From Chloroflexota bacterium (GTDB taxonomy: Bacteria; Chloroflexota; Anaerolineae; Caldilineales; Caldilineaceae), in the NCBI GenBank assembly GCA_026389895.1, contig JAPLGZ010000191.1, forward strand, positions 1 to 10,936: DNA of 10,936 bases, read 5' to 3'. Below, in pieces: positions 3,050 to 8,298 of the stretch. A program made the translations under genes and the position numbers. The notes beneath the pieces are model-generated. The model did no database searches, was not told the DNA's origin, and was given only the letters and a program-made list of their open reading frames with translations. Numbering within the stretch: the stretch's first letter is position 1; every line of letters begins with the position of its first letter.

Positions 3050-4324
3050 TTACTTTTTTAACACATTCGCCGTCCAACCATCATCAATGGGCTTTACCCA
3101 GCTCGCGCGCGCTTCGGGAATGGCGTGGCTGCTCAACACATCGGAGGGTAAGGTAGCCACGCCACGCGGTGTCTTCGCCAGTTGCGCCTGCTCTTCAGCG
3201 CTCAGGCGCGTCGGGTCGATGGCCACCATCCATCCAAGCCCCGTCTCAGGATCGGTCAGGGCGATCTGATAGTCGGGCGAAGCGAGCAAATTGGCTAAGA
3301 CCAGCGCGCCCGCCGGATTATTGGCATTATACGGGATCCCGACATAGCTGACATTAGCCAGGGTGCCGCTATCAAAGACAAAGGTGCGCATACTATCGGG
3401 ATATTGGCCGGACTTGATGTAGGTCGAAGCGCGGTTAGCGTCATATTCCATATTAAAGTCGATCTCACCATTTGCGATCAAATCGGTCATCGCCGCCAAC
3501 TCAGGATAGGTGTCGCCGGCATGCCACAAATTGGGCTTAATGGCGTTCAAATAATCCCAGACTTGAGGCGCCACTTTGTCATAGGCGGCCTGGTCAAATT
3601 CTTGCAGAAAAATATCTGGGCTGCCTGCCGCCCAATAGAAAAGCTGCCGTACAAAGGCGCTGCCCACATGATTGGGCGGTGCTGGATAGGTAAAACGGCC
3701 AGGGTGTTGCGCGATCCAGGTTTTTAAGGCCTCAAAAGTCTTGGGCGGGGTTTGGACATTTTTGGTATTATACTCCATCACCCATTGAAAACTAGCCCAG
3801 GGCGCTTCGTAACCGTCCACCTTTTGGCCGAAGTCATAGGCCAGCGCGGGGTTATCCCAATTAACAAATTTGCGATTGGGCAGTAGGTCGGTAAAAGGCC
3901 CATAGAGTAGATTGGCCTCCTTCAACGTGCGAAAGTTTTCGCCGTTGATCCAGATCAGATCGATGCTACCGCCGTGCGCTTTGCCCGCCGCCTTTTCATT
4001 CAGCACTTTGTTGACCGCGTCGGCCGTATTTTCCACCGGCACACGATTTAGGGTAATGCCATATTGCTCCTTGAGGGGACCACCAATCGCCGTATCCACA
4101 TGTGCGTTGATCGTGTCTGAGCCGCCCCACATAAACCAATTAACCGTGGTCCCTTTGGCGGCGCTCAGCACATCGTCCCAGTTTGTATATTTGGGCACAG
4201 TTGTCTGTGGGCTCGGTTGCGAGGCATTGCCCGTAGGTTCGGCTGGTGCAATACAACCAGTCAGCAGTGTGATGACAACAACCAACACCAGGCTTGCAAA
4301 AGTCAGCCGTTTTTTAAACAACAT
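3050..4324 (-). CDS. ABC transporter substrate-binding lipoprotein (extracellular solute-binding protein, family-1-like)
   Basis: N-terminal signal peptide with lipobox LLTGC (MLFKKRLTFASLVLVVVITLLTGC). 424 aa. Shine-Dalgarno GGAGA lies 6 nt upstream of the ATG at 4322-4324. First gene of the SBP-permease-permease-ATPase operon. Confidence 0.85.
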   Translation of the reverse strand: MLFKKRLTFASLVLVVVITLLTGCIAPAEPTGNASQPSPQTTVPKYTNWDDVLSAAKGTTVNWFMWGGSDTINAHVDTAIGGPLKEQYGITLNRVPVENTADAVNKVLNEKAAGKAHGGSIDLIWINGENFRTLKEANLLYGPFTDLLPNRKFVNWDNPALAYDFGQKVDGYEAPWASFQWVMEYNTKNVQTPPKTFEALKTWIAQHPGRFTYPAPPNHVGSAFVRQLFYWAAGSPDIFLQEFDQAAYDKVAPQVWDYLNAIKPNLWHAGDTYPELAAMTDLIANGEIDFNMEYDANRASTYIKSGQYPDSMRTFVFDSGTLANVSYVGIPYNANNPAGALVLANLLASPDYQIALTDPETGLGWMVAIDPTRLSAEEQAQLAKTPRGVATLPSDVLSSHAIPEARASWVKPIDDGWTANVLKK

Positions 4325-4399
4325 ACTTATCTCCTACGTCAATGTGGTAGAGGTGGCAAATGATGATTTGAAGTTAGGAACAGTTGCGGATGAAGCTTA

Positions 4400-4560
4400 C
4401 TTGTCGCAACAGAATTTGACGTACTCCCGCGACTCAAGTCGAGGGATTCTAGGGTCAGACGGCAATTGCTGTACGAGACAGTCTGACATCGCCTAACCTA
4501 AGAGAAGACGCCCCTTCTCTATGAATATTTAGAGCAGCGTTTAGATCACGGTTATGGATA
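4400..4560 (-). ncRNA. Predicted TnpB guide-RNA (omega/reRNA) locus: 3' end of tnpB plus the right-end region
   Basis: By analogy with characterised TnpB systems, the omega RNA derives from the tnpB 3' end and the right end of the IS. This stretch is rich in hairpins: GTCAGAC-N20-GTCTGAC at 4454-4487, spanning the tnpB stop and enclosing the palindrome GCAATTGC; GTTGCG-N20-CGCAAC at 4385-4416; and the right-end hairpin at 4426-4445. Transcript ends are not determinable from sequence alone. Confidence 0.3.
4426..4445 (-). repeat. IS right-end subterminal hairpin (cccgCGACTcaAGTCGaggg)
   Basis: Imperfect hairpin whose core CGACT/AGTCG and downstream GGATTCT match the left-end hairpin at 6094-6120 in the same orientation. 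Confidence 0.5.
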
Positions 4561-5603
4561 ACACCACAACCAGGACAAGCCCATTGCCGCTCAGACAGTT
4601 TCAAATCATGCTTAATATGGCCGCAGTCAGAGCAAGTCTTGCTCGACGGATAGAAACGATCAATCAGATGAACAAGCTTACCTTTGGTGGATGCAACATA
4701 CCCCAAAATGCCCATGAACTCAGAACGAGCAAGGTCGCCTACTTGGCGACCCCACAGGGCTTCGGGTACCCTCTGGGTGCCCTTCATGTTCAAATCTTCA
4801 AAGTACAGTTGATCGAACTTATCGGTCAATTCGTGGGCCAGCGTGAAGAACCAATCACGGCGCTTGTTGACCACCGTCTGATGAATGCGCGTGACAACCA
4901 TTCTGGCTTTCTTCCATCGACCGGAAAACTTGACCTTGCGGGCCATGTTTTGTTGAGCAAGTTTCAATTCGGTCATTGCTTCCCGAAAGTACAACGGGCT
5001 TTCAATATCTTCACCGATGGATGGTTTCAAGAAGACTTTCAGACCAAAGTCAAAGCCTGCGCTGTTACCCGTCATAGCCTGATTGATTTGGCTTGTTTCT
5101 TCTTGCACCACAAAGTAGAGATAGAGATGGCCCAACGTATCCCGCTTGACTGTAACTGTTTTAACAGCGAGTGGGATGTCACGACTCTTGCTAAACTTGT
5201 AAACCATGCCCTGAATATAGATTTTGTTGCCGTCCAACAACTTCCAGCCAGCTTGCTTCAAGGTGAACGACGTATAGCGTTTGACTTTCTTGAAACCTGG
5301 CGGGGATGTTCTAACCTTGCGCTTAAGATTGCCGAAGAACAGTTTATAGGCTTTGTCAATGCGTTGCGTGATGTCCTGAATCGCCTGGCTACCTACCTTG
5401 CCCCAATACGCGTACTTAGGCAGCTTCTTGAGTTTGGCAAGATGTTTTTGCAAGTCGTACAGGTTCAAGCTTTTGCCAGTCAACTTGTAGTAGCGCCGAT
5501 GCAAAGCAATGGCATGATTCCAGATAATCCCAGAAATGTCGATCTGCTGATGCAGGTGCTTATTCTTTTTCGACTGGTAGAGTTTGAACTTGTACGTTCG
5601 CAT
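4455..5603 (-). CDS. tnpB: TnpB (IS605 OrfB-family RNA-guided endonuclease)
   Basis: 382 aa. Has RuvC-I (AGFDFGLK), RuvC-II (TLAHELTDKFD with Glu), a zinc finger CSDCG...CPGCG, and RuvC-III (HNRDLNAALNI). The catalytic D/E/D residues all appear present. The start overlaps the 3' end of tnpA, as in IS605-type elements. Confidence 0.9.
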   Translation of the reverse strand: MRTYKFKLYQSKKNKHLHQQIDISGIIWNHAIALHRRYYKLTGKSLNLYDLQKHLAKLKKLPKYAYWGKVGSQAIQDITQRIDKAYKLFFGNLKRKVRTSPPGFKKVKRYTSFTLKQAGWKLLDGNKIYIQGMVYKFSKSRDIPLAVKTVTVKRDTLGHLYLYFVVQEETSQINQAMTGNSAGFDFGLKVFLKPSIGEDIESPLYFREAMTELKLAQQNMARKVKFSGRWKKARMVVTRIHQTVVNKRRDWFFTLAHELTDKFDQLYFEDLNMKGTQRVPEALWGRQVGDLARSEFMGILGYVASTKGKLVHLIDRFYPSSKTCSDCGHIKHDLKLSERQWACPGCGVIHNRDLNAALNIHREGASSLRLGDVRLSRTAIAV

Positions 5604-6000
5604 TGGTTCTTCTGTTCTTCGATATAACGTCTAATCGTTTCGGCTGAAATATGCCCAACCGACTCCCAATAATACGAACGAGTCCAGAGGGTAGGTAGAC
5701 CAGATTTGAGTTTAGGAAACTCAGCGCGAAGCTTAAACGATGAATAACTTTTTAGTTGCTGTATGATGTAATGCGGCCCATGAATCGGTTTTGTTTTCAC
5801 AAAGAGATGCACATGATCAGGCAGGATTTCCATCGTATCGATAATCAAGCCAAGTTCGGTTGCCTTCTCACTCAACAGTTCTTTTAACCTGCTTGCAACC
5901 TGATCAACGAGCACTTTGCGCCGATACTTTGGAGACCAAATCGATGATAACCAATGTTATAAACTGCCTTATTGCTAGTGATCCAACGTTCGTTTATCAT
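5480..6000 (-). pseudogene. tnpA: IS200/IS605 TnpA (Y1 HUH transposase) with a 1-nt frameshift near codon 19. The longest intact ORF (5480-5914) starts at an internal GTG
   Basis: The 144-aa ORF has the HUH motif (DHVHLFV) and the catalytic Tyr region (RSYYWESVG). Immediately upstream in the same frame lies IWSPKYRRKVL (consensus VWCPKYRRKVL), preceded by a stop. The missing N-terminus (ATG at 5998-6000, MINERWITSNKAVYNIGYH) is in the +1 frame. The two frames join at GGT TAT CAT | CG ATT TGG (around 5942-5946). One extra nucleotide there would restore YH-x-IWSPKYRR. The result could be a genuine inactivation or a sequencing error. Confidence 0.6.
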
Positions 6001-6093
6001 GACAGAAGGATACCAGAATATTATACATCGTCAAATAGATAATGTTTTGGCGTATACTATCAACTTCCAAAGCCAGCAGGCTTTGCCGCATTC

Positions 6094-6120
6094 ATCCTAC
6101 GACTAAAGTCGAATTAGGAT
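6094..6120 (-). repeat. IS left-end subterminal hairpin (atcctaCGACTaaAGTCGaattaggat)
   Basis: Outer stem ATCCTA/TAGGAT and inner stem CGACT/AGTCG. The same core motif occurs at the right end. Lies about 95 bp upstream of the tnpA start. Confidence 0.5.
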
Positions 6121-6145
6121 TTCTGCGGGTAGGATCGTAAAACAG

Positions 6146-6191
6146 GCTAAAGGCTTTACAAATACAACTGTAAAGCCTTTAGCGTTTTGTT
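6146..6191 (-). terminator. Intrinsic terminator of the flotillin gene. The perfect 15-bp stem is bidirectional in appearance
   Basis: 6146-6160 (gctaaaggctttaca) is the exact reverse complement of 6169-6183, with an 8-nt loop. On the minus-strand transcript the stem is followed by CUGUUUUAC. On the plus strand it is followed by GUUUUGUU. It starts 22 nt after the flotillin stop codon (6206-6208). Confidence 0.55.
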
Positions 6192-6205
6192 ATGCGACTC
6201 CACCT

Positions 6206-6502
6206 CTACGCGGCCGGCTTCTCACCCGCATCATTCTTCTTGTCCTGTTGACTGGCCGCCAGACTTGCGTAAATCTGATTGCGCAGCGCCTCCACCTGCG
6301 GCGAACGGACCGCATTGGCGTCGGGGTTGACCGACACGCCCATCCGATCAGACAACAGGATCGCCAGCAACCCTTGCATTAAGTTGTTCTGGCTGCCGTC
6401 CTGACCGTTGCCACCACCACCGCTGATTACGACGCGGGGCACTACGTCCACACCGGCCACTTGAATCGCCTCGGCGAAACGATTCATCACTTGTTGTGTC
6501 AC
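6206..6502 (-). CDS. C-terminal fragment of flotillin-family protein, out of frame with the upstream ORF because of a 50-bp duplication
   Basis: The 98-aa ORF starts at GTG. Its first 10 residues (MTQQVMNRFA) repeat the end of the 599-aa ORF. The remainder (EAIQVAGVDVVPRVVISGGG...) matches the conserved flotillin C-terminal tail pattern (..LP.IA...PL....V.V.SG..). No ribosome-binding site of its own. Confidence 0.6.
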   Translation of the reverse strand: MTQQVMNRFAEAIQVAGVDVVPRVVISGGGGNGQDGSQNNLMQGLLAILLSDRMGVSVNPDANAVRSPQVEALRNQIYASLAASQQDKKNDAGEKPAA

Positions 6503-6571
6503 CTGGTATTGCGGGCCACCACGGCGAAACGATTCATCACTTGTTGTGTCACCTGGTATTGCGGGCCACCA
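6472..6571. repeat. Perfect 50-bp tandem duplication (2 x cggcgaaacgattcatcacttgttgtgtcacctggtattgcgggccacca)
   Basis: 6472-6521 is identical to 6522-6571 base for base. The flanking bases differ (6471 t vs 6521 a; 6522 c vs 6572 t). 50 is not a multiple of 3, so the second copy shifts the reading frame of the gene it lies in. Confidence 0.95.
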
Positions 6572-8298
6572 TAAGCACGCACCTGTTCTTCGACGGCAAT
6601 GGCTTGGGCGATACCGATACGGGCATTCTTTTCGGCTTCGGCTTCGGCCAATGTACGAATTTGCGCTGCCATTTGCAAGGCTCGTTGATATTCAGCCTTG
6701 CCTTCGTTGCTCTGCACCGTAATGCTCAGTTCAGACTCGGTGATCTTGGTCTGTTGTTGCGTGCGGGCCTGCGCTTCGCGCAACTCACGTTCCTTGACCG
6801 AGGCCGCCTCTTGCCGGGCATAGGTTTCGATCTGCTCCTCGGCGATCTGGCGCGAGCGCAACTGCATCAGAATGTTCTCGATCTGTGTATCCCCTGGAGG
6901 CGAGGTGGGGGTGCCGATCAATACTTCTTCTAGTTCCAAATTGTAGCGCGCAAACTTCTCTTTCATCTCCTGGCTAGAAATATTCTGAATATTGCTGCGA
7001 TCCTGAATCAACTGAATCAAGGTGCGCGTCTGGCCAATATTTTTGAAGTAGGCGGCCACCAACGGGTCAAGCGTCTGCTCAACCAGACGTTTGATATCAC
7101 CAAAGCGTTGGATCACCAGCGGCGCTTTGCGATAGTCGATGTGCACCACCACCGACAGCGGCAACAGCGGTTCAAAGGCGTCTTTGGTGATCAGCGAAAT
7201 CTCGGCCAAATTCTCATCAAAACGATGCGCCCCGACTTCGTTGCGATTCCATTTGAGGATGATATTCGTGGTCGGCACGGTAATCACCTTGCCGGCATAG
7301 GTGTTGAAGGCGTATTTGCCGGGCAGCAATGGCTCGTCCCAAACGCCGCGATTGCCACGGCTCACCATCTCACCATGTTTATAATCGGCACCCGACAGAT
7401 CTTCGCCTACCCCACCCGTGTAGGAGATCACCACACCGGCATTACCGACTTCGATAATCGTCTTGGGGATGCGCTCGACAGTCGCGAAGAGCCGGTTGAT
7501 ATAATAAGTGCCTTCGACCACGACCTGCAATTGGCGACCACGCATACCGCCAGCGAGCAAAAAGCGATCGGCGTCTTGAAACTTATTGTGATAGGTAGAC
7601 TCATCACCGACATTGTCGCCGACCACGGGCGCAATGATATCGCCCTGGTGCAGCGACGGACCATCATGCACTGTCACAATGCCGACCGAATCTTCGTTGT
7701 CTTTGATCACGACGGGCGTAAAGCCGCTGCGATCGGAGATCAGGCTGGCCATCTGCTTGACAATCTCTTCTTCCTCGCGGCTGATCGAGAGTGAATAGAC
7801 CTTTTCTGCCGTGAGCACGACAAACTGCGCCAAATTGATCGCATAGGTGCCTTCGCGCAAGATCATGCGTTGCGGGCCGCGCGTGCCGCCATCGCGCATA
7901 AACGCCGTCACATCTTGAAAATCATGGGCTGTGACATTCGACGCCAAGGCTTGCGTCGCGCTCAATGGCTGGCCATCACGCGCGAACACATAACCGATGC
8001 GGCCTTGCGGGATCGTCACCAACGGGGCGCGGTGTACGGCATACTGGAACGGCGGTAAAAAGTGGATGCCACCACGCAGCAAATTAGGCTGAAAACCGGC
8101 TTCGCCATTGAGCGCAATAAAACCCGACTTGATCGATCCGCGCGCGCTCCAACGCTTCTCGACGATCCCTACGCGCGTATTCGGGATAAAACGGATCCAC
8201 GACGCAAGGACGATCAACAACACGAACAGCACAACTGCCACCAAAATCAAAGTTGCCAATACTCCAAACATTTTCCATTTCCCTTTCGCTCGGCGCAA
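6499..8298 (-). CDS. Flotillin-family SPFH/band-7 protein (YqiK/FloT-like), N-terminal 592 residues, prematurely terminated by the frameshift. The likely true start is the ATG at 8269-8271 rather than the TTG at 8296-8298
   Basis: N-terminal TM helix (MFGVLATLILVAVVLFVLLIVLASW), then an SPFH-like domain, then a long EA-rich coiled-coil region (EAQARTQQQ...AEAEAEKNARIG) typical of flotillins. Ends ...NRFAVVARNTR*, where VVARNTR is frameshift-derived. The ATG at 8271 is preceded by AAAGGGAAA. The TTG at 8298 has no Shine-Dalgarno. Confidence 0.85.
   Translation of the reverse strand: MRRAKGKWKMFGVLATLILVAVVLFVLLIVLASWIRFIPNTRVGIVEKRWSARGSIKSGFIALNGEAGFQPNLLRGGIHFLPPFQYAVHRAPLVTIPQGRIGYVFARDGQPLSATQALASNVTAHDFQDVTAFMRDGGTRGPQRMILREGTYAINLAQFVVLTAEKVYSLSISREEEEIVKQMASLISDRSGFTPVVIKDNEDSVGIVTVHDGPSLHQGDIIAPVVGDNVGDESTYHNKFQDADRFLLAGGMRGRQLQVVVEGTYYINRLFATVERIPKTIIEVGNAGVVISYTGGVGEDLSGADYKHGEMVSRGNRGVWDEPLLPGKYAFNTYAGKVITVPTTNIILKWNRNEVGAHRFDENLAEISLITKDAFEPLLPLSVVVHIDYRKAPLVIQRFGDIKRLVEQTLDPLVAAYFKNIGQTRTLIQLIQDRSNIQNISSQEMKEKFARYNLELEEVLIGTPTSPPGDTQIENILMQLRSRQIAEEQIETYARQEAASVKERELREAQARTQQQTKITESELSITVQSNEGKAEYQRALQMAAQIRTLAEAEAEKNARIGIAQAIAVEEQVRAYGGPQYQVTQQVMNRFAVVARNTR

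Follow-up and report, generated by a model that had tools for sequence, protein, structure and literature searches.

A probable IS608-type insertion sequence remnant with a decayed transposition module and a retained TnpB/ωRNA module at the head of an ABC importer operon in a Chloroflexota contig

The presence of an insertion sequence (IS) at the head of an ATP-binding cassette (ABC) importer operon in a Chloroflexota bacterium raises the question of whether the element can still move or has been fixed in place with its TnpB/omega RNA (ωRNA) module kept. The window analysed here is the whole contig of 10,936 bp from a metagenome-assembled genome (MAG), in which all the relevant genes lie on the minus strand; the features described below are on that strand unless stated otherwise. 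The stretch 6136..4416 (1,721 bp, delimited by homology breakpoints) is very probably one copy of an IS608-type member of the IS200/IS605 family whose transposition module has decayed and whose TnpB/ωRNA maintenance module was kept, that is, a non-autonomous, homing-competent IS remnant. With the same high probability, the element was inserted 3' of a TTAC tetranucleotide in the T-tail of a flotillin terminator, 91 nt upstream of the binding-protein gene that opens the operon. Judged from its sequence, the copy is predicted to be unable to excise by itself.

The end points were set by the breakpoints against three full-length homologues with intact tnpA and tnpB, namely L077 (86% nucleotide identity), L034 (82%) and L031 (76%), together with 28 related right ends and nine related left ends. 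The three homologues were obtained from a metagenome scan with the repaired TnpA and a look-up of the closest TnpB. Homology with them begins at TTAC|GATCC and ends at ...GGGAGTACGTCAA|. All 28 related right ends stop at GTCAA (...GGGAGTAYGTCAA) and are followed by unrelated flanking DNA, while the left ends begin after TTAC (8/9) or CTAC (1/9). The original prediction had placed an IS200/IS605-family element at 4417-6139. The family assignment was supported by Pfam domains and by full-length homologues with identical ends, and the element does lie there; its exact ends are nevertheless 6136 and 4416, as TTAC (6140..6137) belongs to the flanking target. This tetranucleotide serves TnpA as left cleavage site (CL) and presumably TnpB as transposon-associated motif (TAM). 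The predicted AT-richness was also found, the GC content being 0.41-0.50 within the element and 0.51-0.58 in the flanks.

The cis-acting signals were compared with those of IS608, in which CL is TTAC, the left guide tetranucleotide (GL) AAAG, the right guide (GR) GAAT and the right cleavage site (CR) TCAA, with CL 19 nt from the foot of the left imperfect palindrome (IPL) and right cleavage 10 nt from the hairpin foot (PMC5934647, PMC3201880). The left end (LE, 6136..6058) was recognised from alignments and from 87% identity over 83 nt to the LE of the relative L005, and the right end (RE) core (4449..4416) from alignments of the related right ends. In the RE, GR GAAT (4449..4446) lies directly 5' of the right imperfect palindrome (IPR, 4445..4426; CCCTCGAC TT GA GTCGCGGG, one T·C mismatch), and a 6-nt linker then leads to CR TCAA (4419..4416), cleavage falling 10 nt from the hairpin foot. 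The mismatch was considered as a lesion and rejected, as L077 carries a T·T mismatch at the same position. The LE contains IPL (6118..6096, CCTA-ATT-CGAC TTTA GTCG TAGG) and a second conserved hairpin (CAAAGCC..GGCTTTG); the distance between the cleavage point and the hairpin foot is 18 nt in the window and in L005 and 19 nt in relatives. The paired subterminal hairpins at 4425-4442 and 6095-6112 match in direct orientation, as had been predicted, and no terminal inverted repeats are present. The end hairpins are conserved among the relatives, with compensatory changes.

GR, CR and CL of the window are as in IS608. GL (6122..6119), in contrast, reads AAAT in the window against AAAG in 9/9 related left ends, and AAAT does not fit the element's own CL TTAC, with which GL pairs in this family. 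Work on IS608 showed that a four-base replacement of GL (AAAG to GGAA) leaves no robust LE-RE-TnpA complex and that other targets are chosen when GL bases are changed (PMC3201880). The window copy may hence be a poor substrate even for TnpA supplied in trans. A different pair was seen in a relative (L003:3690-3760), which is flanked by CTAC instead of TTAC and has the left-end guide AGAG instead of AAAG; this may be co-variation of the cleavage site and the guide tetranucleotide, as the IS608 model predicts.

The tnpA pseudogene (6000..5600, ATG at 6000) corresponds to a Y1 HUH transposase. A deletion of one nucleotide (T) between 5943 and 5942 was found at codon 20, where the window reads TATCATC-GATTTGG against TATCATCTGATTTGG in L077, and L034 and L031 are likewise one base longer. 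The predicted loss of the tnpA frame is therefore correct, although the break had been put near codon 19. The frame from the ATG encodes MINERWITSNKAVYNIGYH followed by unrelated sequence and a stop, and the remainder of TnpA (IWSPKYRRK...RRYIEEQKNQ) is encoded in another frame. This downstream frame still encodes H63 and H65 of the HUH motif and Y126/Q130. The repaired TnpA matched Pfam Y1_Tnp over positions 2-121/121 (7e-36) and IS608 TnpA (2A6M, 2e-27), with the HUH histidines and the Tyr and Gln of YIEEQ in register.

The 3' end of tnpA carries a further lesion. The stop codon TGA (5602..5600, overlapping the tnpB ATG) has changed to TGC, the ATGA overlap of the relatives being ATGC in the window; the change is synonymous for TnpB (AGA to CGA). 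As the stop is lost, the tnpA frame runs 41 codons into tnpB. All the intact TnpA homologues, for comparison, are 133-140 amino acids long. The protein from the window tnpA was not found among the 120 closest TnpA homologues, while the window's TnpB and binding protein are both in the collection, as would be expected if tnpA stands as a pseudogene in the record. Upstream of tnpA, a consensus scan and alignments gave a promoter-like site (6034..6007, TTGACG-16-TATCCT with TG) that reads TTGACA...TATACT in L077 and L034, the window copy differing by a single substitution in the -10 hexamer and by the loss of 1 nt at the -35 hexamer; the site may function as a promoter. The decay of tnpA appears to be real because the stop codon and GL carry substitutions as well. 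With a dead tnpA and a mutated GL, the copy is probably immobile. The proposal of an immobilised element was thus strengthened by two lesions beyond the frameshift, the lost tnpA stop and the mutated GL, all of them read from MAG sequence.

The tnpB gene (5603..4455) is an intact open reading frame (ORF) of 382 amino acids with the Pfam domains OrfB_IS605 (1e-14) and Cas12f1-like_TNB (1e-20). Its product aligned full-length with ISDra2 TnpB of solved structure (8BF8/8EXA/8H1J) over residues 7-372 (E=2e-43). In this alignment D185, E269 and D353 of the window TnpB coincide with D191, E278 and D361 of ISDra2, and its two CxxC pairs coincide with C331/C334/C351/C354 of ISDra2. The RuvC D/E/D triad and the zinc finger, which had been assigned by inspection of the sequence, are thus at the catalytic positions, and TnpB is intact as claimed. 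On the window branch 44 synonymous and 19 nonsynonymous substitutions were counted in tnpB, which is similar to the mobile relatives (35/13 and 41/13). Immediately behind the catalytic Glu, an in-frame insertion of 12 nt (four amino acids, ~4765-4776) puts TQRVPE in the place of the MQ seen in most relatives. P0123/L077, whose tnpA is intact, carries the insertion too (reading TQWVPE), and it was accordingly rejected as a lesion. In the window the insertion makes a near-perfect inverted repeat on the plus strand at 4764-4782 (GGGTACCC TCT GGGTGCCC), which possibly originated by template switching.

The predicted ωRNA scaffold (~4547..4416) spans the last ~90 nt of tnpB and the right end, and its 5' end may lie further upstream. 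It was defined by aligning the last ~210 nt of 24 related elements and folding the alignment with RNAalifold. The consensus has 30 pairs in six helices, 20/30 of them with compensatory changes; the helices comprise 4520-4501, 4500-4497/4453-4450, 4493-4489/4465-4461, 4481-4478/4472-4469, 4446-4441/4430-4425 and the long-range 4547-4545/4420-4418. Standard pairs are formed in 94.6% of the cells, compared to 43-52% in controls slid by 1-3 columns, and none of 500 shuffles reached the observed pairing value. The window copy keeps 29/30 pairs, the lone mismatch being that in the RE hairpin, which is also mismatched in L077. On this comparative evidence, the scaffold appears to keep the structure of its family. 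The region is close to the ~4400-4560 of the minus strand where an omega RNA had been expected. A single-sequence fold of the window region was uninformative (z=-0.22), the structure being seen by comparative analysis only, and the scan of the whole window gave no match to an ωRNA or other Rfam family at E≤1. The guide was placed by the TnpB/ωRNA architecture (PMC8612924) in the flank directly 3' of the RE, at the start of the binding-protein leader (4415..4396, ATTCTGTTGCGACAAGTAAG). No second match to this predicted guide was found within the window.

Full-length homologues with identical ends (L077, L034 and L031) were found in other metagenomes, and a recognisable empty site was found in L074, a related strain. 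L074 is the contig of the closest binding-protein orthologue (P0002, 92% identical), its flotillin is 98% identical, and its gene order is that of the window (hydrolase, LOG-like gene, Band_7, binding protein). Between the last two of these genes L074 has no element, the spacer reading ...CATAATGTTAC|ATTCTCTTGCGACAAGCAAGCTTTATCTGCAATTGTTC. At the empty site (...GTTAC|ATTCTCTTGCGACAAGCAAG) TTAC runs straight into the counterpart of the right flank of the window element, ATTCTGTTGCGACAAGTAAGCTTCATCCGCAACTGTTC, with no duplication, and the sequence after TTAC matches the predicted guide at 18/20 positions. An empty allele of the window site would read TTAC+ATTCTGTTGCG. The comparison of the two sequences shows the scarless filled/empty pattern expected for the IS200/IS605 family. 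The insertion appears to be recent, because it is absent from this strain with a 98% identical flotillin.

The sequence upstream of TTAC, in contrast to the right flank, is non-homologous between the window and L074, and divergence sets in immediately behind the flotillin stop. A rearrangement in which IS copies had recombined was considered and rejected, since flotillin is the left neighbour in both, the divergence begins from its stop, and L076 differs again. The spacer differs in all three genomes: L076 (3575-4854) holds a PIN-domain gene and an opposite-strand gene of 261 amino acids, L074 (4375-4612) holds neither, and the window (6205..4325) holds the IS. Just after the flotillin stop codon the sequence is unrelated in the window, L074 and L076. 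As the left flank is non-homologous and L076 holds two extra genes, the spacer seems to vary for reasons beyond the IS, and these alignments mark it as a probable local hotspot of variation. A TTGCTT-17-CATAAT motif was seen by eye just before TTAC in L074, whereas the scan gave only another weak match further upstream; a displaced operon promoter is not claimed, since the scan did not report the motif. Independent insertions directly after a hairpin, or after a hairpin and T-tract, ending in TTAC were observed in the window (6183..6137), in L002 (~3690-3730), in L031 (~85-110) and in L032/L033, which suggests that the element family prefers terminator-like stem-loops as single-stranded targets.

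A mechanism for the retention of the module can be proposed from ISDra2 and the ISGst elements (PMC8612924, PMC10278001, bioRxiv 10.1101/2023.03.14.532601). The element's own promoter would drive a tnpA'-tnpB transcript, which TnpB would process into the ωRNA, the guide being the 16-20 nt of flank after TCAA (ATTCTGTTGCGACAAG..., from 4415). The TnpB-ωRNA complex would cut chromosome copies in which TTAC abuts the guide sequence, that is, empty alleles. Recombinational repair from the filled copy would then reinstall the element, by which its retention or homing would be favoured.

Several points weigh against a dead transposition module beside a working maintenance module, and the strongest of them concern the quality of the sequence. 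In a contig from a MAG, the single base missing from tnpA may reflect faulty assembly or sequencing; the highly conserved flotillin gene on the same contig is interrupted by a perfect 50-nt duplication that could be an artefact too. On this account the element would be a fully functional autonomous IS, and all the catalytic motifs of tnpA are indeed still encoded. The deletion, however, lies outside a homopolymer (CATC|GATT), and the same module carries substitutions specific to the window (TGA to TGC, GL AAAG to AAAT against 9/9 relatives, TATACT to TATCCT), which are rarely invented by assemblers. An error is considered unlikely for these reasons. The substitution counts on the window branch of tnpA (five synonymous and five nonsynonymous, against 9/3 and 28/8 on the other two branches) hint at relaxed constraint but are too small for more than a hint. 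TnpB may also be poorly expressed, because the promoter differs in both hexamers and the tnpA-tnpB translational coupling (ATGA) is lost. The idea that tnpA is expressed by programmed ribosomal frameshifting draws on the existence of two overlapping frames and on nothing else. In all close relatives a single frame encodes TnpA, no slippery heptamer is present at CATCGATTT, and the window gene has lost its stop codon as well; the comparison with the intact relatives effectively refuted it, and its probability is negligible.

Among the readings in which the tnpA lesion is genuine, mobilisation in trans by the TnpA of a sister element deserves the most attention, as the copy would then be non-autonomous without being immobilised. 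The subterminal hairpins at both ends are intact, as are GR, CR and CL, and accession numbering suggests TnpB paralogues in the same MAG at 86%, 75% and perhaps 88%. Mobilisation in trans is also assumed for the roughly 75% of tnpB genes that have no tnpA nearby (bioRxiv 10.1101/2023.03.14.532601). Against this, GL AAAT mismatches the element's own CL TTAC, the IS608 GL mutant loses the LE-RE-TnpA complex (PMC3201880), and no intact TnpA of this incomplete MAG was found among the 120 closest TnpA homologues. Mobilisation in trans is thus regarded as possible but doubtful. If the host had domesticated the TnpB/ωRNA module, for instance to control or drive the ABC importer operon, the element would no longer behave selfishly. 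The element is co-directional with the operon and 91 nt upstream of its first gene. As the scan gave no promoter-like site between the RE and the start codon, and a terminator stands immediately before the element, the operon may depend entirely on transcription reading through from the element. The promoter scan, for its part, relied on crude consensus matching. The nuclease triad is intact, which sets the module apart from the known repressor derivatives (TldR), and the insertion is recent, being absent from the strain with 98% identical flotillin. The arrangement is also not conserved across genomes, and the substitutions on the TnpB branch match those of mobile relatives; domestication therefore has a very small probability. 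Slightly less improbable, yet still a long shot, is the narrower proposal that the element supplies the only transcription into the operon, in which case the mRNA would start as a chimeric tnpB/ωRNA leader and TnpB at the scaffold would influence importer expression. If this were true, it would represent early host co-option of a still nuclease-competent TnpB.

The remnant proposed here was compared with the known systems of this family. Like IS608 (ISHp608 of Helicobacter pylori), it has the order LE-tnpA-tnpB-RE on one strand and is inserted 3' of TTAC without target duplication. CL TTAC, GR GAAT, CR TCAA and the 10-nt right spacing are shared, the relatives also having GL AAAG and 19 nt from CL to the foot, and the repaired window TnpA has the HUH motif and the equivalents of Y127/Q131. 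It differs from IS608 in its Chloroflexota host, in the frameshifted tnpA without a stop, in GL AAAT, in the 18 nt from CL to the foot and in low protein identity. With the TnpB-ωRNA of ISDra2 (Deinococcus radiodurans) it shares the full-length TnpB alignment, the catalytic triad and zinc finger, and an ωRNA over the tnpB 3' end and RE with the guide in the 3' flank (PMC8612924, PMC10097598). The expected TAM is TTAC here against TTGAT in ISDra2, the window TnpB has the four-residue insertion after the catalytic Glu, and the window ωRNA is so different in sequence that it finds no match among the Rfam models. The window element also resembles the non-autonomous tnpB-only elements (IS1341-type; ISGst2-5 of Geobacillus stearothermophilus), which likewise lack a functional tnpA in cis but have conserved ends and a TnpB/ωRNA that looks functional. 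The tnpA remnant of the window is still nearly full-length, whereas the tnpB-only relatives carry a small ORF between LE and tnpB; the loss of tnpA thus appears to be recent.

TldR proteins are nuclease-dead, TnpB-like RNA-guided repressors whose RuvC catalytic residues have been lost and whose transposon ends are gone. The window resembles them in having an immobile TnpB-family gene next to host genes, and differs in the intact triad and in the presence of both transposon ends. A domesticated repressor of this type was rejected, as the D/E/D triad and both ends are present in the window element.

A dead tnpA with an intact-looking TnpB/ωRNA is the norm for this family, in which about 25% of tnpB genes have tnpA nearby (bioRxiv 10.1101/2023.03.14.532601). 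As most tnpB genes were already known without a working tnpA, the novelty is small; elements of this kind are already known and do not define a new system, and the significance of the present one beyond annotation is slight. What it does offer is a clearly bounded case, complete with exact ends, predicted TAM and guide, and both a filled and an empty site, from a TnpB lineage that is abundant in Chloroflexota/Cyanobacteria and carries IS608-type cis signals. It may be seen as a snapshot of the passage from an autonomous IS605-family element to a tnpB-only one, in which the transposase gene and the left-end guide decay first and tnpB and the ωRNA stay. A compact TnpB of 382 amino acids with a predicted TTAC TAM and a covariation-supported ωRNA model could be of modest use in the mining of TnpB for genome editing.

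The surroundings of the element agree with the predicted co-directional placement between the flotillin terminator and the binding-protein gene, all on the minus strand. The Band_7/flotillin gene (8298..6206, Pfam) lies upstream of the element and is followed by a strong terminator hairpin (6183..6146), with TTAC 6140..6137 as the end of its T-tail. A leader of 91 nt leads from the element to the SBP_bac_8 binding-protein gene (4324..3050, Pfam), the first of the operon, and no promoter-like site was found between the RE and its start codon by the crude consensus scan. Two BPD_transp_1 permease genes and an ABC_tran+TOBE_2 ATPase gene follow downstream. In the NCBI records the binding protein is MCX6045476.1 and TnpB is MCX6045477.1. 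The flotillin gene carries a perfect two-copy tandem duplication of 50 nt (6472-6571) that shifts its frame; overlapping ORFs of 599 and 98 amino acids are found in the window, compared to a single ORF of 671-673 amino acids in L074 (98% identical) and L076 (96%). The duplication may be a genuine disruptive mutation or may have arisen in assembly, and its presence lowers the trust in single-base detail of this contig.

The TnpB scan of the genome collection revealed relatives in Caldilineales MAGs (76-80% amino acid identity), cyanobacteria and other phyla, with more than 2,900 homologues at E≤1e-80. The TnpB paralogues MCX6044553.1 (P0131, 86%), MCX6045881.1 (P0217, 75%) and MCX6050496.1 (P0122, 88%) have accessions near MCX6045477.1 and are probably from the same MAG submission; from this numbering, the family is likely to be multi-copy but diverged in the source genome. 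Exact-protein look-ups with the window's TnpB, binding protein and flotillin gave no match for the source contig, and neither P0122 nor P0131 gave one. The closest Caldilineales relatives (L001-L006) are tnpB-only elements. In the tnpB-only Caldilineales relatives an ORF of ~58 amino acids (MDEQYTQLRIW...) with its own promoter-like site lies between LE and tnpB, in the place that tnpA takes in the window. It was located at L002:3865-4044 and L005:1359-1547 and at homologous sites in L003, L004, L006 and L023. The Caldilineales versions gave no significant Pfam match, and the counterpart in L023 gave a sub-threshold match to RHH_1 (E=0.002). This small ORF may correspond to the 'Arc' ribbon-helix-helix repressor of IS605-family elements (bioRxiv 10.64898/2026.09.24.754181).

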